Positions 1,312 through 42,103 of a stretch of 43,171 bases of DNA are shown one piece after another (within the stretch, counting starts at the first letter, position 1; the number at the start of each line of letters is the position of its first letter). This DNA comes from a virus. Taxonomy: Duplodnaviria > Heunggongvirae > Uroviricota > Caudoviricetes. The position numbers were made by a program, and so were the translations under genes. Where the stretch lies: the IMG/VR virus record IMGVR_UViG_2939121850_000002, positions 1 through 43,171 of that record, one strand, 5' to 3'. The notes under the pieces were generated by a model that did not search any database, had not been told where the DNA came from, and worked only from the letters and a program-made list of their open reading frames with translations.

Positions 1312-1326
1312 TGGTGTCCCCTGCAG
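1312..1326. repeat. Prophage attachment core, left copy (tggtgtcccctgcag); displaced host-type argW 3' end
   Basis: 14/15 identity with the 3' end of argW at 42089-42103 on the same strand; exact shared 11-mer gtcccctgcag. Brackets the whole phage gene set between torI and int. Confidence 0.6.
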
Positions 1327-1399
1327 ACATCTACTTGAAGCGGCAGGGGATTGATTGGAATGGTGTTTTTTAGATGTGAGAAATATTTTACCCGCTATT

Positions 1400-1600
1400 T
1401 TACCCATTGGCGCGGCTTAAGAGCTTATTTTTGAATTCACAATGGTCACGATATAACCATCTTGCTCGCCCGTGGATAACTTTGGCTTTTGGAAGGTCTC
1501 CGGACTTAATCCGAGCATAGATGAAGGTTTTACCGAAGCCAGTATCGGCCATGATGAATTTCAAATCAACCAGTGAATCAGGCTGTAGTTCGTGTTGCAT
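1400..1600 (-). CDS. torI: TorI-like excisionase / recombination directionality factor (AlpA-type winged helix), 66 aa
   Basis: 66-aa protein with FIMADTGFGKTFIYARIKSGDLPKAKVIHGRARWL, matching my recollection of KplE1/CPS-53 TorI. Sits at the prophage end opposite the integrase, as in KplE1. Confidence 0.7.
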   Translation of the reverse strand: MQHELQPDSLVDLKFIMADTGFGKTFIYARIKSGDLPKAKVIHGRARWLYRDHCEFKNKLLSRANG

Positions 1601-1619
1601 GAGTGCTATCTCCGAATAG

Positions 1620-1635
1620 GGAATCGAACCTGCAA
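1620..1635. repeat. Second argW-derived fragment (ggaatcgaacctgcaa, T-arm region) inside the prophage, upstream of torI
   Basis: 16/16 identity with argW positions 42103-42118, same orientation. In the tRNA this segment directly abuts the att core; here it lies 293 bp from the core with torI in between. Confidence 0.5.
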
Positions 1636-1973
1636 ATCAGGCAATAAAAAACCGCATTGATGCGGCGATGGTATGTCTGGATATCTTGAGAAATGAACAG
1701 GCCTCATCGAGTGTGAGGCGGTGTGATTTCTTTATTTCCACTCTTAATGTTTGTCAGTGAATGGTTTCTCCATCTCCATTAATGCCTTATTCATCTCATT
1801 TCGTAACTCTATAGCCATCCTGACGGCTTCAACTTGTGCAGGATGTCGGTTAATTGCTGGAGAATATCGTCGGGAACGAAGGATTGAGAAAACAAAGATA
1901 ATGCAAGCAACTATCTGAATTGCATTGCATGTTATTGATACAATGTGAATTGCAGCCATCTACTACCCAAAAT

Positions 1974-1993
1974 AAAAAACCGCCATCAGGCGG
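1974..1993 (-). terminator. Rho-independent terminator at the end of the early-left operon
   Basis: On the minus strand: GGCGG-tgat-CCGCC hairpin followed by T6 (plus-strand aaaaaa-ccgcc-atca-ggcgg). Confidence 0.45.
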
Positions 1994-2168
1994 CTTGGTG
2001 TTCTTTCAGTTCTTCAATTCGAATATTGGTTACGTCTGCATGTGCTATCTGCGCCCACAGCATCCAGTGGTCATAGCAGTCGCTGATGTTCTCGGCTTCG
2101 ATAACTCTGTTGAATGGCTCTCCATTCCATTCACCTGTGACTCGGAAGTGCATTTGTGATTTCTCCAA
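1986..2168 (-). CDS. Hypothetical small phage protein (60 aa)
   Basis: Last ORF of the minus-strand early operon, ends at the terminator; no recognisable motif. Confidence 0.35.
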   Translation of the reverse strand: MEKSQMHFRVTGEWNGEPFNRVIEAENISDCYDHWMLWAQIAHADVTNIRIEELKEHQAA

Positions 2169-2188
2169 AAGATGCTTGAGTGCGCTTC

Positions 2189-2500
2189 TTATTCGATTCG
2201 CACACCTGGTATTTCGCCTTTTGAAATGGCTAAGTCATAAATTTGCGCAGCACTATACCCATCTCGCATCCATGAATCTAAGGCGCGAACAGCCTCGCTA
2301 CGCTTTTTATCTTCTCTCTCATTTTTGATATCAACGAGGACATCAACGCAATTAATGCATATGTGGATTTTGTCCTTACATTCGATCATGGCGGCTTTGC
2401 CATGATTTCCGCCACACAGTGAGCATAAATCTTCAGGGTCTGGCTGGTATTTCTGTAACGTTAGAGGGTTTAATGTTGAACAGACCATAATCATCTCCAT
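2189..2500 (-). CDS. Hypothetical Cys-rich (zinc-ribbon-like) phage protein, 103 aa
   Basis: CxxC...CxxC pattern (CSLCGG ... CINCVD); same strand and tight spacing with neighbouring early-left genes. Confidence 0.45.
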   Translation of the reverse strand: MEMIMVCSTLNPLTLQKYQPDPEDLCSLCGGNHGKAAMIECKDKIHICINCVDVLVDIKNEREDKKRSEAVRALDSWMRDGYSAAQIYDLAISKGEIPGVRIE

Positions 2501-2674
2501 AAAACAAAACCCGCCGTAGCGAGTTCAGATAAAAGAAATCCCCGTCAGTGCGAGGATTGTTAGTTGCGCTCTGCTGCTGCCTTAGCCATTACCATATCCA
2601 CCAAACTTCACCAGACATGATTCTCGCAATCACTATCATCACCAAAGTGATAATCACAACTTTAACTGGCGGCA

Positions 2675-3292
2675 TCATTCACCATCCTGCTCCGGCGGTT
2701 CAGGAATCGCCATCCATCTGATTACATCGCAATTACGTAGGCTGATGTCATCTCCAAGCCATCCTTGACCTTCAGACCAGCATTGCACGTAATACCCGTC
2801 TGCGGCGTCAACTACGCACCACTGCGCGTCGTTCGGCATTCGCTCACTACAGCTTATCCAACCATCCGGAGTTACCGGATAGTTGCCGGGTTCTTTAATG
2901 TGCAAGCGAGGCTCACCATCTTTTGGCTCAGGCCACTGGCGCTCCATGTTGATCTTCAATTTATCTTCCATAGCAGCGGTAATTTCAGCATCGCTGATGC
3001 CAGCACGGCGCTGTGCATCCCACAACAGAAACTGCATATCAGCCCACTCGCTAAGATCGTCTGGTTCGGCTGCGGCTTCCAGTGCCTCTTTTGAGAGATG
3101 TTTCAGCGGACCAATGGGGCCAACGCAGCCAAATGTGGAGTCAGACCATTTGGCATGCTCGTGGCGAATCTGTTCGCGTTCCAGTGATGCCAGTGCAATT
3201 CGTGCCAGTTCCATTTGTTCGCCACGAGTAAGTCCGTTATCAAGCGGATTTTTAATGAATAATTTGATACGTTCTTTGGTTATAGCGCTCAT
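2675..3292 (-). CDS. DUF551-domain early-left protein
   Basis: C-terminal PDGWISCSERMP...WCVV...RWMAIPEPP resembles the DUF551 signature common in enterobacterial prophages. Likely start is the Met at 3292, overlapping the upstream stop (ORF-track start 3334). Confidence 0.5.
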   Translation of the reverse strand: MSAITKERIKLFIKNPLDNGLTRGEQMELARIALASLEREQIRHEHAKWSDSTFGCVGPIGPLKHLSKEALEAAAEPDDLSEWADMQFLLWDAQRRAGISDAEITAAMEDKLKINMERQWPEPKDGEPRLHIKEPGNYPVTPDGWISCSERMPNDAQWCVVDAADGYYVQCWSEGQGWLGDDISLRNCDVIRWMAIPEPPEQDGE

Positions 3293-3293
3293 A

Positions 3294-3719
3294 TCACTCT
3301 CCTTTGATGCGAATGCCAGTAGCGCGGATTGCATCGATGACTTCAGAAACTTTGTATGCCATTACCGTTTGGTAATCCTCGTTAAAATCTGTTCGATGAA
3401 GCATACTGCTACGTTCCGGGAGCAGTATTTCCCGCGCTTCCAGTTCAGCAATGCGCTTACTTCCATCCGAGATTACTCCCTCGTAATATTCACGCTGCTC
3501 GTTGAGTTTTGATTTTGCCAACTCCAGTTGCTTTGTTAGTTCCGCAATACGGCAAACATCGTTGATACGCGTTTCCTCTAATGCGTTGAGATCACCCAGC
3601 AGCGCCAGCACAATCGATGGTGTTACCAGCTCATGGAAAAGGTCCGCGTCAAATCCCCAGTCGTCATGCATTGCCTGCTCTGCCGCCTCACGCAGTACCT
3701 GATAGTCAATATCGCTCAC
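3294..3719 (-). CDS. Ead/Ea22-like early-left protein (coiled-coil)
   Basis: EYYEGVISDGSKRIAELEARE-type coiled-coil segment typical of Ea22-like proteins. GTG start at 3719 is preceded by a strong AAGGAGG; the longer ORF-track start (3911) would overlap the Lar-like gene. Confidence 0.5.
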   Translation of the reverse strand: MSDIDYQVLREAAEQAMHDDWGFDADLFHELVTPSIVLALLGDLNALEETRINDVCRIAELTKQLELAKSKLNEQREYYEGVISDGSKRIAELEAREILLPERSSMLHRTDFNEDYQTVMAYKVSEVIDAIRATGIRIKGE

Positions 3720-3939
3720 TGGTTGCCTCCTTTGCTCGCTGATTCCACTCTGCTCTAACCTCTGAATAAAAAATCGCGCAGTCATTTCCAGGCGCTGCAT
3801 ATTTGCTACCAGATTGAGCGCGACACGTACCGCATCGAACGAAATAGAATCGACCGCCAGAGCCATATTCAGGGTGATCTGCTTCGCTGGCAACGTGCGC
3901 TGCACCGCCACAGAATGGACATGGTAGTAGGTTGCTCAT
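3706..3939 (-). CDS. Lar-family restriction-alleviation-like zinc-ribbon protein (77 aa)
   Basis: N-terminal [12 protein letters not shown] ... CGTC motif as in the Lar family; ATGA start/stop overlap with the upstream gene. Confidence 0.5.
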   Translation of the reverse strand: MSNLLPCPFCGGAAHVASEADHPEYGSGGRFYFVRCGTCRAQSGSKYAAPGNDCAIFYSEVRAEWNQRAKEATSERY

Positions 3940-4496
3940 GAATGCACTCCCTTGTGAAGCTGTTCCGCACAATGCAGCAGGGCGTCAGTCGCCTCTTTCA
4001 CCGTAACGCAGTCGCCATCGTCCAGCCCGGACACCGACGCGTGCTTAACGAACGCCGCGCAAAGGTCATCAAACGCCTTAGCCCGGACTTCAGCCAGGAA
4101 AGCATCGGTGGCTGGGGTGTCTGATTGCATAGACTTTGCGCGATAATCATTCCACCCTCTTGCATATATGGGATTAACTTGCACCCCATCTTTTACGCAA
4201 TATGCCTGCCCTCCACGGTTGATAACCTTGATTTCGTCCATAGCGCCAGACTTCAGCCCCGCATTCTCCGCCGCCAGCGCCGAAAACTTCTCGTGTGCCA
4301 ACTTAACAGCCGCATCAGCCTGCTTAATTGACTCAATCGCTTTCTGGTGGTCTTCGGACAGAGCCGAAATCTTGGCCTCCGCTTCAGCAAATTTACGCAC
4401 CAGATATTCACCGTTTGTTTCGTTAACCTTTAAATCTCGTGGGATGCATTGACCTTTCAGAAAACCATCCATCTCAATTAGTGACATTTGTTTCAT
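3936..4496 (-). CDS. Hypothetical early-left protein (186 aa, coiled-coil N-terminus)
   Basis: Unambiguous ORF, translationally coupled to the Lar-like gene; no motif recognised. Confidence 0.45.
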
Positions 4497-4653
4497 TTCT
4501 TCCCACTCCGCAACATCGCATTCAGATATTTGTTTTGATTCACTGATGGAAAAGAATTTCTCTTAAGCAATTCCTCTCTCGATGGCATTGGCTTTACGCG
4601 TTGGAGAATAATCATTTCTGCCGGAAGAATGCCGGGATTGTATGCAAGTCCTC

Positions 4654-4944
4654 TCATGATTTACTCTCCACGAACTGGTCAATAGCCATGCTAAGTGACA
4701 CACCTAAAGTCTCGATATGTTGCTGAATATCCTGTAGCGTCTGCGCCTGAGATAACAGGATTTCACGGTTGCATAATTCTTTAACCAGATGCTCAAACTT
4801 GCTGTAATAACCGATACGGCTTAGTGTTTCTTTCCCTGCATTCTCGCCTTCTTTTATAATTCCTCTTTCGCTAAGAATCAGATCGTGTTTGGTTCCGGTA
4901 ATAACGTATTTTCCGAGGTCGATGTTTAGCTTCATTGTTTTCAT
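4654..4944 (-). CDS. Hypothetical early-left protein (~96 aa)
   Basis: ORF in the operon; the internal Met at 4944 avoids overlap with the upstream gene. Confidence 0.4.
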
Positions 4945-4954
4945 TGTTAATTCC

Positions 4955-5248
4955 TCAGTCATTACTGATAGCGCCATAGCGTGAGCGGTAATTACGCAGG
5001 CGCGGGTCAATTTCAGGGAAGTGGGTATATGTGGCTTTGCGGAATGGTCGGATTGATGTCTGGTAAATTCGCTCGCGTTCTTCTTTCTCTGCAAGCCATA
5101 TACAGTGGCGAAATTCCTTTTCCTCTTTCGTTTCCTGCGGTAGCGACATTATCCGATCGTAGTTTTTTCTGAATTTATCCAGCACCTCCGATACGGAATT
5201 GCCGGAACAGCGGCGCGCGTCATCCGCACCATACAAAGGCGCTGGCAT
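4955..5248 (-). CDS. Hypothetical early-left protein (97 aa)
   Basis: ORF immediately downstream of ssb on the same strand. Confidence 0.4.
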   Translation of the reverse strand: MPAPLYGADDARRCSGNSVSEVLDKFRKNYDRIMSLPQETKEEKEFRHCIWLAEKEERERIYQTSIRPFRKATYTHFPEIDPRLRNYRSRYGAISND

Positions 5249-5261
5249 GTTTTTCTCCTGA

Positions 5262-5768
5262 TTAAATTGCGTGAATAGCGTGACGAGGGAAGGGGAGAGT
5301 TACTGGTGCAAAGGGTATATCGTCGTCAAAATCCATCGGAGGTTCGTTGTGTTGTGCTGGTGATGATTGCTGCTGTGGCTTCTGTGATTGCCTGCTGGCT
5401 GCTTGTTGTTTGCTGTCGCCAATGCCGCCAAGCATTTGCATCACGCCATTAATTCCGACATGAACCTCGGTTGTGTAACGGTCTTGCCCTGACTGGTCTT
5501 TCCACTTTCTGGTTCTCAGCATTCCCTCGAAATAAATCTGATCACCTTTTTTCACATACTGCCCCACGACCTCAGCCAGTTTCCCGGATACAGCAACACG
5601 ATGCCATTCAGTCAATTCCTTTTGCTCGCCAGTATTTTTATCTCGCCATTGTTCTGACGTGGCTATTGTCAGGTTAGCGAACGCTGTTCCTGATGGTGAG
5701 TATCGAACTTCCGGGTCTTGTCCTACCCGACCAAGGATAATCACCTTATTTATCCCGCGAGAACTCAT
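5262..5768 (-). CDS. ssb: Phage single-stranded DNA-binding protein (SSB) with an atypical 15-aa C-terminal extension
   Basis: OB-fold N-terminus ([20 protein letters not shown]), Gln/Pro-rich linker, MDFDDDIPF acidic tip; the frame then continues [15 protein letters not shown] before the stop. Confidence 0.85.
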
Positions 5769-6232
5769 TTGCTCCACCTCTTGCCAGTTTTTATGTTGCT
5801 TATAATTGATTGAGATACACCCATGTCTTTTGCTATCTTGTACTGACTCTCTTTTTCAGAGAGTCTTTTCCTAATTTCTATAACCTGCCACTCTGTTAAT
5901 TTTGCACCATGATGAGCATGACCTTTCTTGGCTCCACGATGCCTTCCTTTTGCTATCTTGTCGTCCATATTTTCTTGCGCGCTACCTAAAAAGAGATGTT
6001 CAGGATTAACGCAGCATGGGTTATCGCATTTGTGGCAAACCATCTTCCCAGATGGAATGGGGGAGTGATAAAGCTCAAAAGCAACCCGATGAGAAAGCAT
6101 TGTTACGCCAAAGGCTACAAATTTTGTGTATCCTCCTTTGTTTTTTGAATAGGTAGACTCCCAGCATCCTGTTGTTTCATTAACTTTGTAGCTGGACTCG
6201 AATCTTTTAATAATTCCGTCCAAGTGAGACAT
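5765..6232 (-). CDS. HNH homing endonuclease with C-terminal helix-turn-helix
   Basis: [21 protein letters not shown] motif plus a C-terminal HTH-like segment ([23 protein letters not shown]); inserted between the annealing protein gene and ssb. Confidence 0.75.
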
Positions 6233-6940
6233 TTATGCCGCCTGTTTTAGTTCGTTAACTCTGATGTTCATTACCTGAACGCATTTAGCCTGCGCCTCCT
6301 CGTTGCCAGCCATTAATTGCCAGTCACGCTGATAACGCTCGATGAGTTTTTTCTTGTCAGTTTCTGTTGACGCATAATCGCTGAAGTCTTTCAGGATTTG
6401 TTCGCAGTCAACCGATGGAGATTTCTGGTTGGTATTTTCTGGTGATGGTTTGTTATCTGATGCTGGGATTGCCCAGCCCGGCAGCGATGGAGGGAGCCAG
6501 TAAAATCCTGTTCCATCCTTCAGTTTTGCCCTGTGCCACCCCTGCTTTTTATCGAGAGATGTTTGTGCGAAACCTTCCTCAAGGTTATACAGATACCGAC
6601 CGATTCCCCATTGAACGGCAGCGCGCTTCATTGCACCGGAACGACCACCTTTGACGGCTTCTACCTGCGTGTTTTCAGCAGCATCCCATTTGGTTACCCA
6701 TTCGGAATCAATCTTTATTGATATGCCGCATTCAACGCCGCCGTTGTTGGGAATATCGCGGTATTCATTGCGCCATCCTGCTTTGCCGCAAACATCGTCC
6801 AGGCGTTTCATGATTGCCCGGTTCGTTACATAAGCCAGCACCATAGCCCACACCTTGCCATCGCGTGTTTTACCGCTTTGCTGTATTCGCCATTCGATAT
6901 CTTCAGGGCTGAATGGCTCATCGAATTTATTCAAATTCAT
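6233..6940 (-). CDS. Rad52/Rad22-family single-strand annealing protein (Sak-like recombinase)
   Basis: Resembles the Rad52 N-terminal domain (AYVTNRAIMKRLDDVCGKAGW ... AVQWGIGRYLY); occupies the bet/erf position of the early-left operon. Confidence 0.6.
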   Translation of the reverse strand: MNLNKFDEPFSPEDIEWRIQQSGKTRDGKVWAMVLAYVTNRAIMKRLDDVCGKAGWRNEYRDIPNNGGVECGISIKIDSEWVTKWDAAENTQVEAVKGGRSGAMKRAAVQWGIGRYLYNLEEGFAQTSLDKKQGWHRAKLKDGTGFYWLPPSLPGWAIPASDNKPSPENTNQKSPSVDCEQILKDFSDYASTETDKKKLIERYQRDWQLMAGNEEAQAKCVQVMNIRVNELKQAA

Positions 6941-7027
6941 AATTCACCTCAGAATGGACATGGCCCAAGGAAATAACGCTGATTTAATACTTCAGTCTTT
7001 GCCGCATTTAAAAATACGCGAACACCT

Positions 7028-7198
7028 TCACGATCTCCCTTCTGGCGATACATTAACGCCTGCTGCGTGTACATGCGTCTCTGTAACTTGCTCTCCTTCA
7101 CTGTGGTTGCAAGTGACATGCATATCTCCTTCGTTACCGATTAAATCTTTCATCTGACGAATGAATTCTTCGTCTGACCAGTTATCTGTAAAACTCAT
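7028..7198 (-). CDS. Small hypothetical protein at the kil position (57 aa)
   Basis: ATG at 7198 overlaps the cIII stop (ATGA); synteny only. Confidence 0.3.
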   Translation of the reverse strand: MSFTDNWSDEEFIRQMKDLIGNEGDMHVTCNHSEGEQVTETHVHAAGVNVSPEGRS

Positions 7199-7365
7199 GG
7201 ACGGCCTTGTTGTTTCAAAATATCCCAAAGCTTTTCGAGCAAACTTTTCATTCTTGGTTGTTTAAAGTCTGCTCCGGTTAAAATATTTTTTCGTGAATGC
7301 TGTACCGATAAAATCGGGTTGAAAGGGCGAACCGATGCCGCCCCTGCAATAGCGAACTGTTGCAT
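7195..7365 (-). CDS. cIII: CIII-like protein (56 aa), not in the ORF track because it is under 60 aa
   Basis: Hand translation: MQQFAIAGAASVRPFNPILSVQHSRKNILTGADFKQPRMKSLLEKLWDILKQQGRP. The MQ.AIAG N-terminus and central amphipathic helix resemble lambda CIII; AAGGAG RBS 6 nt upstream. Confidence 0.5.
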   Translation of the reverse strand: MQQFAIAGAASVRPFNPILSVQHSRKNILTGADFKQPRMKSLLEKLWDILKQQGRP

Positions 7366-7440
7366 AGGATGCTCCTTCTGTTTGATTGCATAACGAAAAC
7401 GCCTCGAGTGAAGCGTTATTGGTATGCGGTAAAGCCGCGC

Positions 7441-7752
7441 TTAGGCGGCTGATGTTTCTTCTTTCAGGCTTTCGAGATATTTACGTGGGTCGTCGTAACA
7501 TTGGCATTCGCTGTACCAATCCACCCAGCGATCAGTAAGCCCCATCTCTGATAAATCTTCATCGGTAAGGCTCTCATCCCACATCTCAAGGCCGTTAGCA
7601 TTGCAGTAATCAGGCTTGATGTTGTTGTCATACTGAAAGGCGTCATAATCAGCCAGTGCGTCCATCAGGCGAACACCCTCTTCAACACTTGCCACTTCTA
7701 CAATGAACGGCTTCATAGGTACTTGCGGGATATGCCAGACACGTAATTTCAT
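7441..7752 (-). CDS. Hypothetical acidic early-left protein (104 aa)
   Basis: Start at 7752 is preceded by GGAGGA; no family recognised. Confidence 0.45.
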   Translation of the reverse strand: MKLRVWHIPQVPMKPFIVEVASVEEGVRLMDALADYDAFQYDNNIKPDYCNANGLEMWDESLTDEDLSEMGLTDRWVDWYSECQCYDDPRKYLESLKEETSAA

Positions 7753-7927
7753 ATATCCTCCATCAAAAAAATTGCCCTCACACTGGAGGGCAAAGAAGAT
7801 TTCCAATAATCAGAACAAGTCGGCTCCTGTTTAGTTACGAGCGACATTGCTCCGTGTATTCACTCGTTGGAATGAATACACAGTGCAATGTTTATTCTGT
7901 TGTTTATGCCAAAAATAAAGGCCACCA

Positions 7928-8179
7928 TCAGGCAGCCTTGTTGTAAATGTTGCAGGTATCAAGTAAGTAATTAGATGGAGCGCCATAAATTATGAATTCA
8001 TCGTTTGTCGGGTCCATCTCCATCTCTTGGCCTATTGCCATTCTTGCGTCAGTGTCGTCAGCGGCGAAGCATAAAACAGCCCACGCACCCATTGTTTTAA
8101 AAAGAACTGCAATTGGCTGTGGTTTTACTGAATTTGCGTTAGCGCGAAAATCACAAATCGCACTTTCATGAAACTCCAT
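7928..8179 (-). CDS. Hypothetical early-left protein (83 aa)
   Basis: In the ral/ea10 position between N and cIII; the C-terminus (...NKAA) is faintly Ral-like, but this is weak. Confidence 0.35.
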   Translation of the reverse strand: MEFHESAICDFRANANSVKPQPIAVLFKTMGAWAVLCFAADDTDARMAIGQEMEMDPTNDEFIIYGAPSNYLLDTCNIYNKAA

Positions 8180-8241
8180 ATCTCACCTCAAATAAGTGGT
8201 TTGCTGCCAAAACAATGAACCATCCGGAAATTCCAGATAGT

Positions 8242-8469
8242 TCATAATTCACTCTTCAATACTTCCAACTTACTAATCGCCGATAGATATCCGCGCTGAT
8301 AGGGCATCATCATTCCTTCGAGCTTGCCACTTCTTAACTCCTCCCTGAGCAATTGTATTGCTTGATCAATAACCTCTGCCTTAGCGTCCTTTATGGCTTG
8401 CTTTCGGGGCTTTGCTTTCTGCTTTGACAGATTTCTCAAGCATGATGGAATGTATGTCTGATTCATCAC
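8242..8469 (-). CDS. Hypothetical early-left protein (75 aa)
   Basis: ORF directly downstream of N on the same strand. Confidence 0.4.
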   Translation of the reverse strand: MMNQTYIPSCLRNLSKQKAKPRKQAIKDAKAEVIDQAIQLLREELRSGKLEGMMMPYQRGYLSAISKLEVLKSEL

Positions 8470-8733
8470 TTACCTCGCTGTAACCTGCTTACTTGTACGA
8501 TGACCAGCTGCGAAAAGCGCAACTTCTGGCAGGCAGACAGTACCACCTTCAACTTCCTTCTGAAGCGTTCCGGCAAGCGAAATGGCTTTTGTTACGCGTG
8601 TACTGCATGTGCTATTTGCTACCCGGCGCGAAAGAGAAGCGTCCTGCATTGCCTGCTCACGTTGAGCCTGTCTGCGTGCTCTGCGGCGATTTCTGGCGTT
8701 ATCGTCAGCCAGATATGTAATGACTACTGTCAT
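8470..8733 (-). CDS. N: N-type transcription antiterminator (P22 gene 24-like)
   Basis: Arg-rich N-terminus (NARNRRRARRQAQREQ) and C-terminal RVTKAISLAGTLQKEVEGGTVCLPEVALFAAGHRTSKQVTAR as recalled for P22 gp24; first gene downstream of OL/pL. Confidence 0.6.
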   Translation of the reverse strand: MTVVITYLADDNARNRRRARRQAQREQAMQDASLSRRVANSTCSTRVTKAISLAGTLQKEVEGGTVCLPEVALFAAGHRTSKQVTAR

Positions 8734-8928
8734 GTTGACCTCCGATGATTGACTTTGGCGGTGACGCGCCGGGTGCTTATCTTCCGGTTGCCGTCGTGCA
8801 GCTGCACTTCACGTCACCCCAAAGCCAACTACTCTTTGGTTCCCGCATTTCGGCGGGACAATCCCATCAATGTTAAAGAGCCTGCCAATCTGTTCCGTTT
8901 GGCTTCCAGCGTCCTGCTGATGGCTAAA

Positions 8929-10203: not shown

Positions 10204-10214
10204 AGCTTAATTCT

Positions 10215-33146: not shown

Positions 33147-34963
33147 TGGCCTATAGTCGCGAACAGTTGATGACGGCGTTAAGGAATGCTGATGCTGCCG
33201 GCGATACTGAGGGAGCACGTCGCATTGCTCAGATGCTGTCTTCTGGTGATCAATCCACTCAAAACCAATCGCAGCCAGAAGAACAATCTCTGGTAGGAAA
33301 AGCTACTGACTGGCTCACTGGTGGTCAAAGTGCAGGGCAAATTGCAGAACAGGCAGGTCGTGGTCTGGTAAACATACCATTTGACGTATTGCAGGGTGGC
33401 GCAAGTCTGATTAATGCAATCAGCCAGGGGCTTGGCGGCCCCAAGGTTTTGGATGATGTCTATCGTCCAGTCGATCGACCGACAGACTCTTACGCACAAG
33501 CCGGTGAAACAATTGGTGGGTATTTAGTTCCAGGAGTTGGAACGGCAGGAAGCATGGCTATTGGCTCACTGGCAGAGGCCGCAAATCAGAAAGGCGATTT
33601 CGCACAAAATGCAGCTAAAAATGCCGGAGTTAACCTTGCCGCTCAGGGGGTTCTTTCCGCAGCAGCAAAGGGAATAGGGCGTGGAATTACTGCTGTTCGT
33701 GGCGAAATATCACCAGCAGATCAGCAATTGCTCAAGCGTGCCGCTGCGGCAGATGTACCAGTTATGACATCGGATGTAGTTCCTCCAAAAACAAAACTTG
33801 GCAATCAACTGCAGGGTTACTCAGAAGGAGTCATAGCTGGTACTGGACCAATGAGATCCGCACAGCAGGATGCTAGAACCAAGCTTGTTAATCGCTTCAC
33901 CGAAAAATACGGCGACTACGATCCATCTGTAGTCGTTGATAGTCTAAAGTCAGGCGTTGCAAGGGAAAAATCGTTAGCCAAGTCAAAACTAAACAACCTG
34001 TCAGGAAGAATGGTTGGAAAGCCAGTTGATACAAATGGCGCCATAAGAGCTATCGACGGAGCAGTAAACGAACTTGGGAAACTTAAAGGTGTTTCTGACA
34101 CCCAGACCATTTCTGCGCTTAATGATTATAAGAATGCCATTCAGGAGATAACAAATGGAGATGATGCCTTTGAGTTACTTGATAAGCTGAGAACTCAGTT
34201 CCGCATTGACGTAAAAGGCGATCGTACAGTTCTGCCATCAATGTCGCAAACAATGGTCGACAGGGTCTACAACTCGCTAACCAATAGCCTTAGTAAATCT
34301 ATAGCAAAAGGACTTAGCCCAAAAGATGCTTCAGCATGGAGAGCGGGAAAAGCTGATTATGCAAAAATGGCAACACATGCAACTCAAACGCGCCTTAAAA
34401 ACGTTCTAAACAAAGGAGATTTAACTCCAGAGGCTGTAAATACCATTGTGTATGGACAATATGGGTCAGATATAGCTCGATTGTACGGGAAACTCGATCA
34501 AAAAGGTAAAGACATGCTAAGGGCGGCATATATCAGCAAAATAGCTGACAAGGTAGGTGACAGCCCTCAGAAAATGATGACCGAGCTTGGCAAGCTGCAA
34601 AAACAAGCAAATGGTCAGGTGTTTAAAACTGTATTTGGTGGGAAGAACGGAAAAGAGATAGAGGGGATGTTATCTATTCTCGATGCTACCAAAAGAGCAT
34701 CTGAGGCTAATGTTGTGACGAAGACTGGCATGACACTCGCGCCTTTGGTAAGGGTTATTGGTAACCTAAAAACCGGAGGCGCGCTATTGGCTGGGGAAAC
34801 AGGGATTGGCCTTATGTCGAGGGTTTATGAAAGCCCTATGGCCAGGAATGCGTTCTTACGTCTGGCAAACACCAAAGCAGGAACGCCAGCCTATGAAAGA
34901 GCATTAAGTAACGCTGCAAATGCCATCAGACCGCTGCTTGCCACTGAGGCAACACAGCAGTGA
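33146..34963 (+). CDS. Ejection protein (P22 gp16-type)
   Basis: 605 aa; synteny. Confidence 0.7.
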   Translation: MAYSREQLMTALRNADAAGDTEGARRIAQMLSSGDQSTQNQSQPEEQSLVGKATDWLTGGQSAGQIAEQAGRGLVNIPFDVLQGGASLINAISQGLGGPKVLDDVYRPVDRPTDSYAQAGETIGGYLVPGVGTAGSMAIGSLAEAANQKGDFAQNAAKNAGVNLAAQGVLSAAAKGIGRGITAVRGEISPADQQLLKRAAAADVPVMTSDVVPPKTKLGNQLQGYSEGVIAGTGPMRSAQQDARTKLVNRFTEKYGDYDPSVVVDSLKSGVAREKSLAKSKLNNLSGRMVGKPVDTNGAIRAIDGAVNELGKLKGVSDTQTISALNDYKNAIQEITNGDDAFELLDKLRTQFRIDVKGDRTVLPSMSQTMVDRVYNSLTNSLSKSIAKGLSPKDASAWRAGKADYAKMATHATQTRLKNVLNKGDLTPEAVNTIVYGQYGSDIARLYGKLDQKGKDMLRAAYISKIADKVGDSPQKMMTELGKLQKQANGQVFKTVFGGKNGKEIEGMLSILDATKRASEANVVTKTGMTLAPLVRVIGNLKTGGALLAGETGIGLMSRVYESPMARNAFLRLANTKAGTPAYERALSNAANAIRPLLATEATQQ

Positions 34964-34980: not shown

Positions 34981-35169
34981 TTATTTCCTTAGCACATGAA
35001 ACAATGTTTGCTTTAATTCCACCCATACAATTATGACCACTATAGACAGACAAAAGAAACTGAATGCATTGGCATCACGATCGAAACCTTCTCCGGCACT
35101 AAATCCGTAAAAGGTCATAAAAAATATAAAAATTGCGCACTTTGCAACGTTTACAAATTTTTTCTTCAT
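34981..35169 (-). CDS. Small membrane protein (62 aa), convergent with gp16
   Basis: ATG at 35169 preceded by a strong AAGGAGG; hydrophobic segments; AT-rich. Confidence 0.45.
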   Translation of the reverse strand: MKKKFVNVAKCAIFIFFMTFYGFSAGEGFDRDANAFSFFCLSIVVIIVWVELKQTLFHVLRK

Positions 35170-35199
35170 ACCAACCTCCTTAGTTTTGCGCAGGATACC

Positions 35200-35565
35200 A
35201 TGAAAAAAGTTAACATTGGAAACGTACCAAAGATGCTCGTTCCGCTCTTTGAGAGCGGTACAATTGTGTTTTGTAGAGACTTTCCAGAATGGCAACGCCT
35301 GCATCAAAAACTTGGCGTTGACGTGCAGGACTCGGATGCCAACGGAGCGTCTCATACAATGAGCAGCGAGAATGGTGTTTTGCATGTGATAGGCGTGTTC
35401 AATGGCAAACTATCTACTATTGCCCATGAGTGCGCTCACATGGCATTCGATATCTGCTCAAGGGTAGGTGTTGATGTTGAACCAGGAAGAGCCAACGAGA
35501 CTTACTGCTACTTAATGAGCAGGCTTGTTGAGTTCTGCGAGCGACATATCAAAAAGCCGGAGTGA
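35200..35565 (+). CDS. Small HExxH-motif protein (putative minimal zinc metallopeptidase), 121 aa
   Basis: IAHECAHMAF; divergently arranged ~30 bp from the 62-aa membrane protein gene. Confidence 0.45.
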   Translation: MKKVNIGNVPKMLVPLFESGTIVFCRDFPEWQRLHQKLGVDVQDSDANGASHTMSSENGVLHVIGVFNGKLSTIAHECAHMAFDICSRVGVDVEPGRANETYCYLMSRLVEFCERHIKKPE

Positions 35566-35578
35566 CCCGGCTTGATTA

Positions 35579-35803
35579 TTACTTTTTTTGGTATGTTAAG
35601 AATGGCAAGTCGCCAGTGTACCCCAAGCGGAAAAGCTCCAATTGCTTATCTCTTATGGATAAAAAATAATCGTTTCTTGCCTTTTTAAGCCACAACCAGC
35701 CGATCATCAAGATGAATAATATTGATATTATTGGCATCGGGGAGATCAACACCACTCCGATGAATAATGACGCTAGCAGCACCGATAAAATAGCAGAAAT
35801 CAT
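35579..35803 (-). CDS. Small two-TM membrane protein (74 aa)
   Basis: Two hydrophobic helices; AT-rich. Confidence 0.45.
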   Translation of the reverse strand: MISAILSVLLASLFIGVVLISPMPIISILFILMIGWLWLKKARNDYFLSIRDKQLELFRLGYTGDLPFLTYQKK

Positions 35804-35828
35804 ACTAATCTCCCACTAAGGTAACAAT

Positions 35829-36014
35829 ATGACTATAGAAGAACGTCTGAACAACATTGAGTTAAACCAAACCCTGCTTGACCAGCGACTTTCAGAGCTT
35901 GAACTTAAAGATCTAGATGCGCAAATATCAGAAGCAGAAGCCAAGCTCTCCAGCTTAAACCACCGTAAGAAGCAAATCCGCGACAGAATTACTCGTGGAC
36001 GCGGAGGCTGTTAA
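35829..36014 (+). CDS. Small coiled-coil protein (61 aa)
   Basis: Heptad-like Leu/Glu pattern and basic C-terminus; weak RBS. Confidence 0.3.
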   Translation: MTIEERLNNIELNQTLLDQRLSELELKDLDAQISEAEAKLSSLNHRKKQIRDRITRGRGGC

Positions 36015-36091
36015 GGTGTGATGGTAATCCTTGCTCACTAAATTTAAGGATGCGAATCTTTCCGGCCATAGGAGTAATCATGATTTACCCA

Positions 36092-36628
36092 TCAAACAAC
36101 CCACCAGTTTGCCTGATTGGATACCAGCCTTGCAGTTTTTATGGAATTAATTATGCCATGCTCAAGAGCCTTGTTAGCATCCAAAATGGTCGAGTCTGCT
36201 ATCAGGGATGCCCACCTAATATGGGTTCCGATGTCGATATTGAACGTCTCAACGAAGCGATCAAGATCGTTATCGAGGCATTTCCCGTACTCTCTCAATC
36301 TGGCATGGTCGGCGGCTGGGGTGGCAAAGCCCCATAATAGAGGATGTAACAGGAATCTTGATAATGGGTTTGCGAAACGTTCTGAGCCAGCCAGGAAAAC
36401 GATATTAGCTATGGATTCAACATTGCTTATGTTGTGAGTTCTAACGGTAACAGGGAGTGACTTAAGAAAGTTATACGCAGTAAAACCAGCGGCAGTTTCC
36501 CCTCCCTGACTTGATATATGGATATTTAATTCAGTTGCGCCTTGAGATAATGCGGTGAGACAGTGGTTCTGAAGTTGCCCAACAGTGGCAGTGTTAACGG
36601 GGCATAAGAAATGAATTGTGTGCAGCAT
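36092..36628 (-). CDS. ClpP-fold (Clp/crotonase-type) serine peptidase-like protein, translationally coupled to mnt
   Basis: Aligns by eye to the ClpP catalytic core (Ser in ...NVESIANIVFLAGSER..., His in ...FLLHPL...); its start shares one nucleotide with the mnt stop (TAATG). Confidence 0.55.
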   Translation of the reverse strand: MLHTIHFLCPVNTATVGQLQNHCLTALSQGATELNIHISSQGGETAAGFTAYNFLKSLPVTVRTHNISNVESIANIVFLAGSERFANPLSRFLLHPLLWGFATPAADHARLREYGKCLDNDLDRFVETFNIDIGTHIRWASLIADSTILDANKALEHGIINSIKTARLVSNQANWWVV

Positions 36629-36864
36629 TATTTTTCATCCTTACCATACATGGTTTTCAGCGTCTCAAGCAGCGCATCCCTGAATTTGTCAGCCTCTTTC
36701 TGAGCAAATTCATTGCTATTAAGCGATCTACCACAAACAGCATCTTCGATAATCTGTATTATTTCAGCATTCATGGAACGCTTGTTATGTTGCGCCCTGG
36801 CTTTAACCTTTTCCTTTAACTCTTTGGAAATCCTAATATTTATTTGCGGCTCTTCGCGTGACAT
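36628..36864 (-). CDS. mnt: Mnt-like ribbon-helix-helix repressor (immI maintenance repressor)
   Basis: RHH N-terminus (INIRISKELKEKVKARAQHNKRSMNAEIIQIIEDAV) as in P22 Mnt; divergent from arc-ant. Confidence 0.7.
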   Translation of the reverse strand: MSREEPQINIRISKELKEKVKARAQHNKRSMNAEIIQIIEDAVCGRSLNSNEFAQKEADKFRDALLETLKTMYGKDEK

Positions 36865-36916
36865 ACCACCTCCATAGCATTTTGGTGATATTACTATTGC
36901 ATCACTGCGATCACAA

Positions 36917-36935
36917 TGGTATAACGGTTATACCA
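36917..36935. promoter_or_regulatory. Perfect 19-bp palindrome in the mnt/arc intergenic region (candidate Mnt/Arc operator)
   Basis: TGGTATAAC-G-GTTATACCA, between divergent mnt and arc. Confidence 0.45.
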
Positions 36936-36952
36936 AATTGATTGGAGGTAAT

Positions 36953-37126
36953 ATGATAGTCAAGTCAGACGCACCAAAGTACCCTTTGCGCATCCCATTA
37001 GAGGTTAAGTTAGCAATCGAGAAGTCAGCGAAAGAAAATGGTCGCTCAATAAATACCGAGATGGTAATGCGGTTGGTGGATAGTTTAAGGCGGGATAGTT
37101 CTAAAGGTAATCTAGCAAAAAGTTGA
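36953..37126 (+). CDS. arc: Arc-like ribbon-helix-helix repressor
   Basis: 57 aa with PLRIPLEVKLAIEKSAKENGRSINTEMVMRLVDSL, similar to P22 Arc. Confidence 0.7.
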   Translation: MIVKSDAPKYPLRIPLEVKLAIEKSAKENGRSINTEMVMRLVDSLRRDSSKGNLAKS

Positions 37127-37205
37127 AGCCCCAACTGCGGTAACAGTCAGGGCTTCGGTTGTCGGTAAATCCGTGGAGAAAAACCAACATGAATAGTATA
37201 GCAAT
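37112..37205 (-). ncRNA. Candidate sar-like antisense RNA across the arc-ant junction
   Basis: Minus-strand intrinsic terminator (7-bp stem GAAGCCC/GGGCTTC, then TTTTT on the minus strand) in the arc-ant intergenic region, where P22 sar RNA terminates. 5' end and promoter not determined. Confidence 0.3.
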
Positions 37206-38091
37206 TTTAGAAGCAGTGAACACCTCTTACGTGCCTTTCAATGGTCAGCAAATTATCACCGCCATGGCTGCCGGAGTTGCATATGTTGCGATGAAACCAA
37301 TCGTTGAAAACCTCGGAATGAGTTGGGGTACTCAGCAACAAAAACTTATGAAACAACTAGATAAGTTCAACTGTATTCATATGAATATGGTTGCTGCTGA
37401 TGGAAAGCTTCGTAAGCTACTCTGCCTTCCTTTGAAGAAGTTAAATGGATGGCTGTTCAGCATCAACCCTGAGAAAGTTCGTGCTGACATCCGTGATAAA
37501 CTGATTCAGTACCAGGAAGAATGCTTTACTGTGCTGCATGACTACTGGACGAAGGGAAAGGCAGAAAATGCACGTAAGAAAACATCTGTTGATGACAGGA
37601 CTCCGCTTCGTGATGCTGTAAATATGCTAGTCAGCAAAAAGCATCTAATGTACCCAGAAGCTTATGCAATGATTCATCAGCGTTTCAATGTGGAAAGTAT
37701 TGAAGAGCTTGATGCATCTCAGATACCGCAAGCCGTAGAGTACATCCACAGGGTAGTGCTTGAAGGCGAGTTAATCGGCAAACAAGAGAAGAAAACCAAC
37801 GAGCTTTCTGCAAAAGAAGCAAACAGCCTTGTATGGTTATGGGATTATGCCAACCGTTCACAGGCATTATTCCGCGAACTGTATCCGGCATTAAAACAAA
37901 TTCAATCGAACTATTCCGGCAGATGCTACGACTACGGTCATGAGTTCTCGTATGTTATCGGAATGGCGAGAGACGTTTTAATCAATCACACACGAGATAT
38001 TGATATCAATGAGCCAGACGGACCAACGAATCTTTCCGCATGGATGAGACTTAAGAATAAAGAATTACCTCCTTCAGTACATAACTACTGA
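37189..38091 (+). CDS. ant: Antirepressor Ant
   Basis: [52 protein letters not shown]... matches P22 Ant as recalled; GGAGAA RBS. Confidence 0.8.
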
Positions 38092-38110: not shown

Positions 38111-38132
38111 CCCAGCTTCGGCTGGGTTTTTT
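38111..38132 (+). terminator. Rho-independent terminator between ant and the tailspike gene
   Basis: CCCAGC-ttcg-GCTGGG followed by TTTTTT. Confidence 0.65.
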
Positions 38133-38190
38133 ATGCCCAAAACTCACCGTAGCTATGCTGCGGCGATTCCTTGCATCTGGAGCAAATTAA

Positions 38191-40641
38191 ATGACAGATT
38201 CAATAAATGCCAATGTTGTAGTGAGTATGCCTTCGCAACTCTTCACTATGGCTCGTTCTTTTAAAGCCGTAGCCAATGGCAAAATTTATATCGGTAAAAT
38301 TGACACTGACCCGGTAAATACTGAAAACCAGATTCCGGTTTATGTAGAGAACGAAGACGGCTCTCACGTTCCTGTTTCTCAACCAATCATCATTAACGCT
38401 GCTGGTTATCCTGTATATAACGGACAGATTGCTAAGTTCGTTACTGTACAAGGGCATTCTATGGCTGTGTACGATTCATATGGATCACAGCAGTTCTATT
38501 TCCCTAATGTGCTGAAGTACGATCCAGATCAGTTTTCATATTTGCTGAAAAGTGATGATGGCTATAAGTATATAGGAGAATGCAAAGATATATCTACATT
38601 GAGAACAATTGAACCAAGTTATGATGGACAGGTTATAAGACTGAGGGGATATTACTCTGACAGCTATTCAGGAGGTGGAAGGTTTTTCCGTAGTGTTAAT
38701 CCTGATGGATTGACAGATAACGGAGGAACGATAATTTTCACATCAGAAGGAAATGTATGGAAATCAGATGATATATATAATGTTATGCTTGAGGATTTCG
38801 GAGCTAAAGATGGCGCTGACAACACCGAAGCATTTCATAAAGCAATTAACTCACCAGCAAAAAAAATCACAACAAATATAAAAGAGTTGATACTAACAAA
38901 CAATATTGTAATTACACGCGGCGACCTGGCAATTGATATGCCTGATACGGAGATAATATGGAATGCTCCGGAAGGGCATATTCCTGATAGAAGTGGATCT
39001 ACAAATCCAAGTAACTATCGTTTTCCTGGCATTCTAGCATTTCGCGGCACTGCTGGAGATATAATAGACTCTTTTACTCTAACAAATAGAATATCAAAAG
39101 GAGATACAACATATTGGTGTACGAACAACTCTCTTTTTGAGAATAGACAGTGGGTTATTATGTCATCGGATGTTGGCGGCGGAACCGTAGGTAGAGAAAT
39201 AAATGTAATGACACAAGTGCAGGGCAGTGGTGGAGCAATAACTCAATTGCGAGTTGATTATAAAACAGGCTGGCATCTTGATGTCGGAAGGGTATTGACA
39301 TATAGAAATGTAACCCCAATAGAAAATGTAAGAATTGCTTTTAAAGGCGTAAAATGGAATCAAAACATAACAGATGCTTCAGGTAGTGGCGATGGATTTG
39401 CCAGTCAACAATCATGCGCACTTGTGTCCCTTGAATACGTAAATAACGCTGACATTTGTCTCGGGTATGGATTTAATCACCCTTACCCAATGGTTGTAAC
39501 TGCCATGGTCAGGAATGTTTTTGTTCATGATACGGAAACAAATTTCCCAAGAGTTCCAGGGTCCGATCATGTTGTTCAATTCAATAACGCATATGAATGC
39601 CACGCAAGAAGATTACGCAATATTTCAGGCAGGCACGTAGTTGATTTTAGTGGTGCAAGTTATTGCTCTGTAAGAGATTGCGGAGAAACAGGAACAAGAA
39701 ATGGTGCATTTACTACGCACGGTATGTTTGAGCACAATTTGCGATTTGATAATAATTATGGTCTTTTAAGCATTGCAAACAGTGGTGAATATTATGGTGA
39801 GTCAGCAGATAATATAACTGTAACCCATCATTTCGGAGATTATTTAATTGCAACTTCAAAAGTTACCAACCTTAACATATTGCATGCAATATTTACAAAA
39901 GGTGCAAGATTAAACAATGATGCCGTCACATTGATTGATGTTACTATTGGAGAAAACTCAACTGATGCCGATAGAGGGCTTAGATTTACCCAAAGCTCTA
40001 ATGTTTATGGGCGTGGGGCAAAAATATTCGGCTGTGACATTGTGTTAAACAAGCAAGCAGGGAATGCTCTGCCTGATTCTCTTAACCAAAGGGTGAAAAT
40101 CGAATCGACATATATCAGGAATTCAAACGCTTCATATTATGGTGGTAGTTGGATTGAACTAATTAATTGTGATGTTTCAGGATCAGGTTCAAGTCTTGAG
40201 AATGTTGTTGCTGCAACGCGGTTTAGCATGCTGTCCGGATCATTATCTAATACTGGTTTTATTTTTCAAGGCCCATCAGAGCAAATCGTAAAAATACATG
40301 ACGTTTCACAGTCTGGAACAGGAGCGTCAGGGCTTAATAGTCATTTTATTTTAAATAAAGATGAGGCAGGAAGTGGACCAATAACAATGTCATATAAAAA
40401 TAATCAATGTATATTGAGCGGAGAAACATGCGCATTCAAAATAAATAATGCTTCAGGAGCATTCAGAGTAAACTCTACAGGGAATACGTTTCAAGGTGGA
40501 AAAATAGAGTTTCAGAAATCTATTACATCAGGTGGCAGTTACTTAAATCACACTGGAAACGTAGAGCGTGGCGTTAGTAGAGTCAACGAGCCAGAAAATA
40601 CTCCATATATAGTAACAACAGGGAATATGATAATTCCCTGA
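38191..40641 (+). CDS. Tailspike (P22 gp9-type head-binding domain with a divergent AT-rich receptor-binding domain)
   Basis: First ~115 aa ([43 protein letters not shown]...[12 protein letters not shown]...[10 protein letters not shown]) match the P22 gp9 head-binding domain; the remaining ~700 aa are AT-rich and unrecognised. Confidence 0.85.
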
Positions 40642-40769
40642 TATAATATAAATCGCCAAGGATGGCTCATTCAAATAAGAATCTTTAGTAATCAGATTGT
40701 TAATTAAAGATGGTTTGTTGGTTTTTATGTTTATTAAAAAAGGTTATATCAACGCGCTGTTATTGTTCT

Positions 40770-41963
40770 TTAATCAACCTTCCCATCAAGCCAGTCCGCC
40801 CACCACTGCATCATTTCTCTGCGCTTATCGAGATACTGAGCATGGTTGTAAATTCCACGCACAGAACCGCCGTTGGCATGTGCTAGTTGCACTTCAATGG
40901 CGTCGGCAGGCCATTCGTGCTCGTTCATAATCGTGCTGAATTCATGCCTGAATCCGTGACCGCTTTCCAGACCTTCATAGCCGATTTGTTTGATCACAAG
41001 CAGTACCGCGTTCTCGCAGATTGGCTTCTTCTTATCGTTGCGCCCGGCAAAAACAAACTCTGAGACTGGTTTGGTTATTGAGCTTAGCGTAGTGAGAAGT
41101 TCAACCACCTGGTCTGACATCGGGACCACATGAATTTTGCGTCCCTTCATCACACTGGCGTCGATGGTGATAATCCTGTTTTCAAAATCGACGTTCTTCC
41201 ATAGCATGGAACGAAGCTCTTTCGTTCTTAGGGCTGTGTAGCGTAAAACTTTGGTCGCAATGAGCGATACGATACTTCCTGAAAATGTTGCCAGTGCTTT
41301 GTTGAATGCAGGGATCTGGTCTGCTGGAAGAAACGGGAAGTTCTTCTTGCGGTATCCTTTCATGGCGTCTGCAAGGTCAGGTGCCGGGTTATATTTAGCC
41401 CTTCCGGTGACAATAGCGTAACGAAAAACCTCGCCGCATCTTCTGCGGGCTTTGTTGGCTCGCTCCATTGCACCGCGATCTTCAAATCTGCGGATTACTT
41501 CCAGCAGTTGCATCGGCTCAATATCCTGAATCTCAAGACCGCCGATGATGGGTAAAATGTCGTCATCAAACATTTTGGCAAGTTCAGTTGCATAGCCTAC
41601 TGACCAGACTTGCTTCTTGTGCTCGTACCATTCCTTGTAAATCGCACTAAATGAATTGTTGTTAGACGAAGCCTTTTTCGCCTTTACCGGATCTATGCCA
41701 ACCGAGATGTCTTTCCTCGCAGTCCATGCCTTATCCCTTGCTTCCTGCAAAGTCATAAGCGGATATTTTCCGACAGTCAGGATTTTCTCCTTACCGTCAA
41801 TCTTGTAGCGAAGCTGCCATACCTTTTTCCCTGATACAGGGACATAAAGGTACAGGCCATTACCATCGAGAAGGCGGTATGGTTTTTCTTTCGGCTTTGC
41901 TGCTTCAATCTGCTTAACGGTGAGCATGGGTAAAAATCCGGTGGGTAAAATTATTTTATCCAC
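40770..41963 (-). CDS. intS: P4-type tyrosine integrase (IntS-like)
   Basis: N-terminus (LTVKQIEAAKPKEKPYRLLDGNGLYLYVPVSGKKVWQLRY) is typical of P4-family integrases; transcribed away from argW. Internal Met at 41927 may be the true start. Confidence 0.85.
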   Translation of the reverse strand: MDKIILPTGFLPMLTVKQIEAAKPKEKPYRLLDGNGLYLYVPVSGKKVWQLRYKIDGKEKILTVGKYPLMTLQEARDKAWTARKDISVGIDPVKAKKASSNNNSFSAIYKEWYEHKKQVWSVGYATELAKMFDDDILPIIGGLEIQDIEPMQLLEVIRRFEDRGAMERANKARRRCGEVFRYAIVTGRAKYNPAPDLADAMKGYRKKNFPFLPADQIPAFNKALATFSGSIVSLIATKVLRYTALRTKELRSMLWKNVDFENRIITIDASVMKGRKIHVVPMSDQVVELLTTLSSITKPVSEFVFAGRNDKKKPICENAVLLVIKQIGYEGLESGHGFRHEFSTIMNEHEWPADAIEVQLAHANGGSVRGIYNHAQYLDKRREMMQWWADWLDGKVD

Positions 41964-42088
41964 TTTTTACCCGTCATGGAGTGCGGCTGTCAACGATCTG
42001 ACGCGAACCATTACGAACTGTTAATCTACGGAAGGCTTGATATTCAGGGGATTTTGCGGACTGGTACGGATGGGAGCGAACTGATAAA

Positions 42089-42103
42089 TGGCGTCCCCTG
42101 CAG
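42089..42103. repeat. Prophage attachment core, right copy, forming the 3' end of argW
   Basis: tggcgtcccctgcag; partner of 1312-1326. Confidence 0.6.

Follow-up and report, generated by a model that had tools for sequence, protein, structure and literature searches.

The stretch of DNA analysed here (the window, 43,171 nucleotides of IMG/VR virus record IMGVR_UViG_2939121850_000002) holds a 40.8-kb prophage set in the E. coli chromosome, with a cscB-like sugar permease gene on one flank (1-870) and yfdC on the other (42239-43171). From left to right, the prophage carries the small excisionase gene torI, an early-left operon, an immunity region, replication genes, a nin region with Q, a lysis cassette, virion genes interrupted by an immI-type region, the tailspike gene and the integrase gene intS, which adjoins the tRNA gene argW (Table 1). 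We are highly confident that this is a complete-looking temperate P22-like phage (genus Lederbergvirus) that integrated in the 3' end of argW of E. coli through the IntS/TorI module.

Prophage boundaries and the empty site

The prophage is bounded by the direct repeats TGG[T/C]GTCCCCTGCAG, which are identical at 14 of 15 positions. Within the window, their 11-bp perfect part, GTCCCCTGCAG, occurs only at 1316-1326 and 42093-42103, against a chance expectation of 0.02. The repeats correspond to the KplE1/HK620/Sf6-type core CTGCAGGGGACACCAT at the argW 3' end, duplicated at both prophage ends, with the mismatch at the discriminator position. The empty site was rebuilt in silico by joining window 811-1311 to 42089-42500 and searched against 5426 complete E. 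coli genomes. Of these, 1412 carried no less than 80% of the joined flanks in one place, the best of them the whole sequence as a single piece, and the top match agreed in 912 of 913 bases, the sole difference being the variable position of the repeat. Judging by the att repeats, argW and the reconstructed empty site, the prophage ends that an earlier note had proposed from the sequence (1312-42103) are exact, and the phage has inserted cleanly.

The integration module

IntS contains the Pfam domains Arm-DNA-bind_3, Phage_int_M and Phage_integrase. The NCBIfam model PRK09692 gave 236 bits, which is under its cutoff of 434, so that the designation 'P4-type' chosen in the earlier note is appropriate only as far as the architecture goes. 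Four IntS proteins could be aligned with a mean column identity of 99%, and intS lies where that note had placed it, at the argW end beside the tailspike gene; the distance to the tailspike stop codon is 128 bp. At the opposite prophage end, beside the early-left genes, TorI is encoded on the minus strand. It is identical at 65 of 66 positions to K-12 TorI, Sf6 gp18 and HK620 HkaC, whose sequences are the same (PMC3509656); Pfam and NCBIfam searches returned no model matching TorI. With IntS at 99% and TorI at 65/66 identity to the K-12 proteins, the proposed assignment to the KplE1-type integration module is confirmed.

The same holds for the DNA sites. For the KplE1-type module, Panis et al. 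defined the intS promoter (PintS) with its -35 and -10 boxes, together with five TorI pentamers (PMC2951348), and all of these are found in the integrase-proximal att arm at 41964-42081 (pentamers GTTCG, GATCG and GTCCG) with the published spacing. When attP was rebuilt from both prophage ends, about 560 bp aligned almost base for base with Sf6, HK620 and a likewise rebuilt KplE1.

Composition of the mosaic

Amino-acid identities were obtained gene by gene, using tblastn against P22, Sf6, HK620, CUS-3, phiv205-1, lambda and K-12. TerS and TerL are 100% and 92% identical to P22 gp3 and gp2, and the 22-bp sequence of the P22 pac site occurs once, without mismatches, inside terS (21150-21171). 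The portal, scaffold, coat and gp4 proteins are instead 97%, 99%, 95% and 100% identical to those of CUS-3 (95-100% when phiv205-1 is considered as well); against P22 the portal, coat and gp4 reach 35%, 29% and 41%, and tblastn found no P22 match for the scaffold. Among the remaining virion proteins, gp10, gp14 and gp7 are conserved in all P22-like phages compared (86-99%), the gp26 needle is of the HK620/CUS-3 type (93-96%) and gp16 of the phiv205-1 type (98%). In the immI region, Ant is 86% and Arc 40% identical to P22, and a Mnt-like ribbon-helix-helix (RHH) protein and the sar RNA are present. The P22-like character that had been ascribed to the packaging, head, ejection and immI genes is borne out for terS, terL, gp10, gp14, gp7 and ant (86-100%), but not for the CUS-3-type portal, scaffold, coat and gp4.

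The immunity region (8642-11072) is 98.4% identical in nucleotide sequence to HK620 7554-9984, with CI 100% and Cro 98% identical at the amino-acid level. Q is of the Sf6/CUS-3 type (97%) and had no lambda match in tblastn. The ninB, E, F, G, H and I products are 100%, 95%, 87%, 97%, 100% and 94% identical to those of lambda; ninC and ninD are absent and their place is occupied by a methyltransferase fragment and a NinX homologue. In the lysis cassette, S and R are each 99% identical to lambda, whereas Rz and Rz1 are 95-97% identical to P22/Sf6 and only 58% and 42% to lambda. A lambda-like run from ninB through ninI and from S to Rz/Rz1, as described earlier, can therefore be upheld for the six nin genes and for S and R, but it lacks ninC and ninD and excludes Rz/Rz1. 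The whole block from nin to lysis is 96-98% identical to Sf6 at the nucleotide level; because it is already in Sf6, it says nothing about recent exchange with lambda. The replication module had no tblastn match in P22, Sf6, HK620, CUS-3 or lambda.

A mosaic P22-like prophage at argW, as the earlier note had it, is what we find, but the count of three contributors is too low. At least six donor types can be told apart: P22, CUS-3/phiv205-1, HK620, Sf6, lambda and a primase-helicase foreign to these references. With contributions from so many sources, the prophage is an ordinary lambdoid mosaic, and the mosaicism of P22-like phages is textbook knowledge. This exact mosaic was not seen elsewhere: no place in the 5426 complete E. 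coli genomes held 80% of either half, and the best coverage among 50,697 phage records was 43-70%. The virion gene order, the head-binding domain of the tailspike and an immI region with arc, ant, a mnt-like gene and sar are traits of Lederbergvirus; the head genes are not of the P22 subtype.

Two details of the mosaic may be added. The HK620-type immunity block begins inside gene N (8642-8733): the N-terminal approximately 30 residues go with the HK620 nutL/pL region and the remainder is P22 gp24-like (83% over 48% of the length), i.e. at this mosaic junction the N-terminal part of N stays joined to the adjoining nut/pL region. The methyltransferase fragment corresponds to positions 50-230 in the PHROG 111 profile (345 positions in all), and Sf6 has this stretch at 99% identity, unannotated in RefSeq.

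Relation to known phages

KplE1 (CPS-53) of K-12 has the same argW target, the same core bar one base and the same arm sequences, including the five TorI pentamers and PintS, and its int and recombination directionality factor (RDF) genes likewise lie at opposite prophage ends. It is, however, a 10.2-kb remnant without repressor or virion genes, whereas the module described here belongs to an entire phage genome of 40.8 kb. The two also differ in TorI residue 29 (D29A here), in the tRNA-proximal core (C here, T in KplE1) and in the absence here of gtr-type O-antigen genes adjoining int.

Sf6 and HK620 share the int-attP-torI module at 96-97% nucleotide identity and the overall gene order; Sf6 additionally has the nin/Q/lysis block in common, and HK620 the immunity region (98% nucleotide identity), gp10, gp26 and gp14. 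In contrast to both, the terminase here is of the P22 type, the portal, scaffold and coat are of the CUS-3 type, the replication module and the receptor domain of the tailspike differ, there is neither oac nor hkcF between tailspike and int, and no tRNA genes follow Q. CUS-3 and phiv205-1 have the same integration site and IntS, and phiv205-1 also shares the ClpP-like gene, ant, Rha and gp16, but terS/terL are of the P22 type here and the immunity region, replication genes and tailspike differ. With P22 the prophage has in common the virion gene order, the identical TerS, the pac site, the sar RNA, ant and the head-binding domain of the tailspike; the P22 integrase gave no tblastn match to IntS at E <= 1e-3, the portal, scaffold and coat are distantly related, and the immunity region, Q and endolysin differ. 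Compared with lambda, ninC/ninD are missing, Q is unrelated and Rz and Rz1 are divergent, as described above.

The gap between tailspike and intS (40642-40769) contains no O-antigen-modifying gene. Such genes are found elsewhere as oac in Sf6, hkcF in HK620, neuO in CUS-3, gtrABC in P22 and yfdGHI in KplE1.

The split int/xis layout and the T-arm repeat

The location of int and xis on opposite sides of attP had been put forward as a departure from P22 and Sf6. This is correct for P22, whose record, like that of lambda, shows xis and int as neighbours on the same side of attP. It is not correct for Sf6: in its record the attP core (18099-18114) lies between int (16781-17938) and the TorI homologue (18188-18388). 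The order in the HK620 record is the same, and phiv205-1 and HF4s carry the same module genes. The recombination module has been called 'highly conserved' in CUS-3, HK620 and Sf6, with transcription of int and RDF uncoupled (PMC2951348), and the int-attP-torI layout is published, including that of Kapi1 (PMC2951348, PMC3509656, PMC8787464). As the Sf6 and HK620 records show this layout and published statements describe it, the feature proposed as unusual is the norm: int and excisionase lie at opposite att sides in argW-integrating P22-like phages generally, and this has already been described. At least 80% of the intS-argW-yfdC segment was present in 1685 of the 5426 complete E. coli genomes, and TorI relatives are encoded by 487 IMG/VR stretches. 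In more distant Klebsiella, Erwinia and Salmonella phages (three diverged records), the core TGCAGGGGACAC lies within a 250-bp gap between xis and int.

A second repeat deserves attention, since the CUS-3 GenBank record marks it, and not the core above, as the att core. It is a tRNA T-arm-like 16-mer, GGAATCGAACCTGCAA, which stands upstream of torI, recurs in argW and includes the TorI-site pentamer GTTCG. The att core (1312-1326) and the 16-mer (1620-1635) together form a split copy of the last 31 nucleotides of argW, with 293 bp containing torI between them. Among the best 80 torI loci of our IMG/VR scan, all near-identical and of the E. coli type, the 16-mer was exact in 75; in the Erwinia phage Midgardsormr38 it is duplicated in tandem at the corresponding position upstream of xis (about 2450-2485). 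The 16-mer is part of the conserved recombination module and, having been retained, may be a candidate TorI operator or part of a cII-type promoter. The presence of GTTCG, the 75 exact loci and the duplication in the Erwinia phage would fit a scenario in which torI was inserted into a once contiguous tRNA-derived attP and the 16-mer now serves as a torI regulatory site. Separately, C-core prophages may convert A73 of argW to G73 as they integrate. We hold this scenario, in both its parts, to be rather unlikely. In the CUS-3 record (CP000711.1) the 16-mer is annotated as the attL/attR core (1-16 and 40192-40207). The sequence of that record stops at this repeat and hence contains neither torI nor the core for which there is experimental support.

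Alternative interpretations

Two readings that differ from an ordinary argW-integrating P22-like phage concern the recombination module. One is that the prophage is an unusual three-way recombinant, set apart from the Sf6 and P22 types by a split int/xis arrangement borrowed from the cryptic KplE1. The 98-99% identity of IntS and TorI to the KplE1 proteins and the adjacent int and xis of P22 and lambda speak for it, but the same module in the same layout is carried by Sf6, HK620, phiv205-1, HF4s and Kapi1, the sharing of the module is stated in the literature (PMC2951348, PMC3509656, PMC8787464) and the visible donor types outnumber the three claimed; the Sf6 and HK620 records refute an unusual layout, and we regard this reading as very improbable. 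The other, to which we give even less credence, would place the true crossover in the T-arm repeat (1620-1635 and 42103-42118), leaving torI outside the element. While the repeat is an exact 16-bp direct repeat and has the CP000711 annotation on its side, in empty sites the cscB-side flank runs straight into TGGTGTCCCCTGCAGGAATCG without an intervening torI, the virion-derived genomes of Sf6, HK620 and HF4s carry torI and the 16-mer internally, and excision of KplE1 has been characterised with the CTGCAGGGGACACCAT core (PMC2951348). The empty-site comparison led us to reject the T-arm repeat as the true att site.

The integrity of the prophage has to be weighed as well. The virion, lysis, regulatory and replication genes are all uninterrupted open reading frames (ORFs), with lengths equal to those of their homologues for scaffold, coat, gp4, gp10, gp26, gp14 and gp7 (CUS-3) and for Q, S, R and Rz (Sf6). 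The size of 40.8 kb sits within the 38-46 kb range of related phages, and the viable phage HK620 has an identical CI. Several points weigh against a fully competent phage. The att cores differ at one base, with T at 1315, as in the empty sites, and C at 42092, which gives argW the discriminator G73 instead of A73, and no attP examined had the C variant, whether in 10 IMG/VR contigs or in 15 full-length phage records, of which the nearest (HF4s) was checked base by base. TorI carries D29A (GAT to GCT in codon 29, window 1514-1516), next to Tyr28, which is needed for DNA binding and excision; this rare substitution was seen neither in 19 phage records nor in the 578 complete genomes matching the torI segment. 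None of the complete E. coli genomes searched contains the exact mosaic, the best place covering 62-76% of each half, and the inducibility of the prophage is something we infer.

The core mismatch, the lack of the C variant in the attPs examined and D29A, together with the truncated methyltransferase ORF, could indicate a prophage that, though intact in appearance, is already impaired in excision or growth and has entered the early phase of the decay from which KplE1 arose. We consider this unlikely, given that the mismatch is close to one end of the core, 11 bp of which remain identical, that the C-variant junction has an exact copy in up to 106 complete E. coli genomes, that the exact D29A TorI protein is found on 70 contigs of a large protein collection (and D29A in one of the 80 IMG/VR torI loci), that position 29 is Ser in the homologue of Salmonella phage Emek, that the methyltransferase fragment is 99% identical in the viable Sf6 and that all essential genes are uninterrupted. 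The C in the right core would stem from a version of attP outside our sample or have arisen by mutation once the phage had integrated, and we read both the core mismatch and D29A as presumably tolerated polymorphisms of a complete-looking phage.

Proposed mechanism and meaning

The sequence itself shows the identities, the gene order, the att repeats and the clean insertion; how this prophage is integrated, excised and regulated we infer from homology with the well-studied IntS/TorI module of KplE1. In the circular phage genome, the order would be tailspike, intS, the arm with the TorI sites, the 15-16-bp core, torI and the early-left genes, and crossover in the core would leave intS beside argW and torI 40 kb off, beside the early-left operon. 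In the prophage, the intS promoter, which lies within the att arm, would drive intS, with IntS and TorI acting as repressors. Uncoupled from intS, torI would be expressed with early-left transcription after induction and, by the logic of the module, not in the stable lysogen. TorI would then bind the five core-adjoining pentamers and steer IntS towards excision.

TorI was discovered as an inhibitor of TorR, and cross-talk with TorR is a known property of K-12 TorI. The idea that the TorI of this prophage might act likewise, raised in the earlier note, is inherited from the K-12 protein and not new, but for the D29A allele it is plausible. A published torI screen yielded 18 distinct mutations scattered across the surface of the protein, each of which abolished anti-TorR activity; D29A was not included (PMC3509656).

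The split layout, its regulation and the side activity of TorI on TorR were elucidated with KplE1 and HK620, and Sf6, CUS-3 and Kapi1 are known to share them. With arrangement and mechanism already known, the present case matters little beyond annotation. Its practical value lies in a correct description, namely a phage with HK620 immunity, P22-type pac packaging, which would probably allow generalized transduction, and a CUS-3-type capsid.

Gene map

The virion gene order 3-2-1-8-5-4-10-26-14-7-20-16-(immI)-9 is complete, with one HNH gene inserted between 10 and 26. Coordinates of all features are collected in Table 1.

Table 1. Features of the argW prophage, in window coordinates
Feature	Position	Strand	Content or remarks
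Left att core TGGTGTCCCCTGCAG	1312..1326		displaced original argW 3' end ('pawZ'-type pseudo-tRNA fragment of K-12)
torI	1400..1600	-	recombination directionality factor (excisionase), 66 amino acids, D29A allele; 65/66 vs TorI
tRNA T-arm-like 16-mer GGAATCGAACCTGCAA	1620..1635		19 nucleotides upstream of torI ATG; identical to argW 42103-42118
Early-left operon	1744..8733	-	small ORFs, EaA/DUF551, Ead/Ea22, HkaH-like, DUF2737, Sf6 gp24-like, abc2, ssb, HNH endonuclease (5765-6232), erf, cIII, P22 gp17-like exclusion protein, N (8470-8733)
HK620-type immunity region	8642..11072		N-terminal part of N, nutL/OL/pL region, hkaS, cI, cro, cII, hkaW
hkaS	9101..9490	-	immunity region
cI	9487..10203	-	immunity region
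cro	10304..10504	+	immunity region
cII	10613..10891	+	immunity region
Replication module	11065..13913	+	O-like initiator 11065-11925; Toprim/DnaB-like primase-helicase 12033-13913; Pfam Phage_rep_O, Toprim_2, DnaB_C
nin region and Q	13991..17624	+	ninB, methyltransferase fragment (14428-14955), ninE, ninX-like, ninF, ninG, ninH, ninI (16444-17115), Q (17106-17624)
Lysis cassette	18221..19438	+	S 18221-18544 and R 18528-19004 (lambda-type); Rz 19001-19438 and Rz1 19194-19385 (P22/Sf6-type)
P22-type terminase	20877..22845	+	terS 20877-21371, terL 21349-22845
CUS-3-type head genes	22845..27974	+	portal, scaffold 25137-26030, coat 26049-27302, small ORF, gp4 27513-27974
Head completion and ejection genes	27984..34963	+	gp10, inserted HNH endonuclease 29405-29899, gp26 needle, gp14, gp7, gp20, gp16
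immI-type region	34981..38091		SieA-like fragment, hkcC, small ORFs, ClpP-like, Mnt-like RHH, arc, sar, ant
ClpP-like gene	36092..36628	-	immI
Mnt-like RHH gene	36628..36864	-	immI
arc	36938..37126		immI
sar antisense RNA	37121..37188	-	immI; Rfam 96 bits
ant	37159..38091		immI
Tailspike gene	38191..40641	+	P22-type head-binding domain (residues 4-114) and divergent low-GC receptor-binding part
intS	40770..41927	-	tyrosine integrase of P4-like architecture; 99% identical to K-12 IntS and Sf6 Int
Integrase-proximal att arm	41964..42088	-	intS promoter and five TorI pentamers; site definitions PMC2951348; aligned with KplE1, Sf6, HK620
intS promoter boxes	-10 41964-41969; -35 41988-41993	-	definitions PMC2951348
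TorI pentamers (five)	41994-98, 42004-08, 42014-18, 42057-61, 42077-81		definitions PMC2951348
Right att core TGGCGTCCCCTGCAG	42089..42103		makes 3' end of functional argW copy
argW	42089..42163	-	tRNA-Arg(CCU), integration target; ARAGORN and Rfam

Accessory genes and tailspike

Two HNH endonuclease genes look like homing-type insertions. The one between virion genes 10 and 26 (plus strand) is a 484-bp insertion that is absent from P22, Sf6, HK620, CUS-3 and phiv205-1, and its exact protein is found on 743 contigs; the second lies between ssb and erf. In immI, the Mnt/Arc-like RHH gene is followed by the gene for a ClpP-like serine protease of 178 amino acids, stop and start codons overlapping. 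This protease matches PDB entry 9uxt_A (E 4.6e-35) and is 100% identical to its phiv205-1 homologue; PADLOC gave no match for it and no credible defence-system match for the accessory ORFs, and an NCBIfam search returned no informative names.

The head-binding domain of the tailspike is clearly recognised (Pfam Head_binding, E 1.8e-64), and matches to solved structures, the N-termini of the Sf6 and P22 tailspikes, cover residues 1 to about 220 only. From about residue 220 onwards the protein matched neither a solved structure nor the reference phages. The GC content of this receptor part is approximately 0.39, compared with 0.47-0.52 for the rest of the prophage, and the exact tailspike protein occurs on only 3 contigs.

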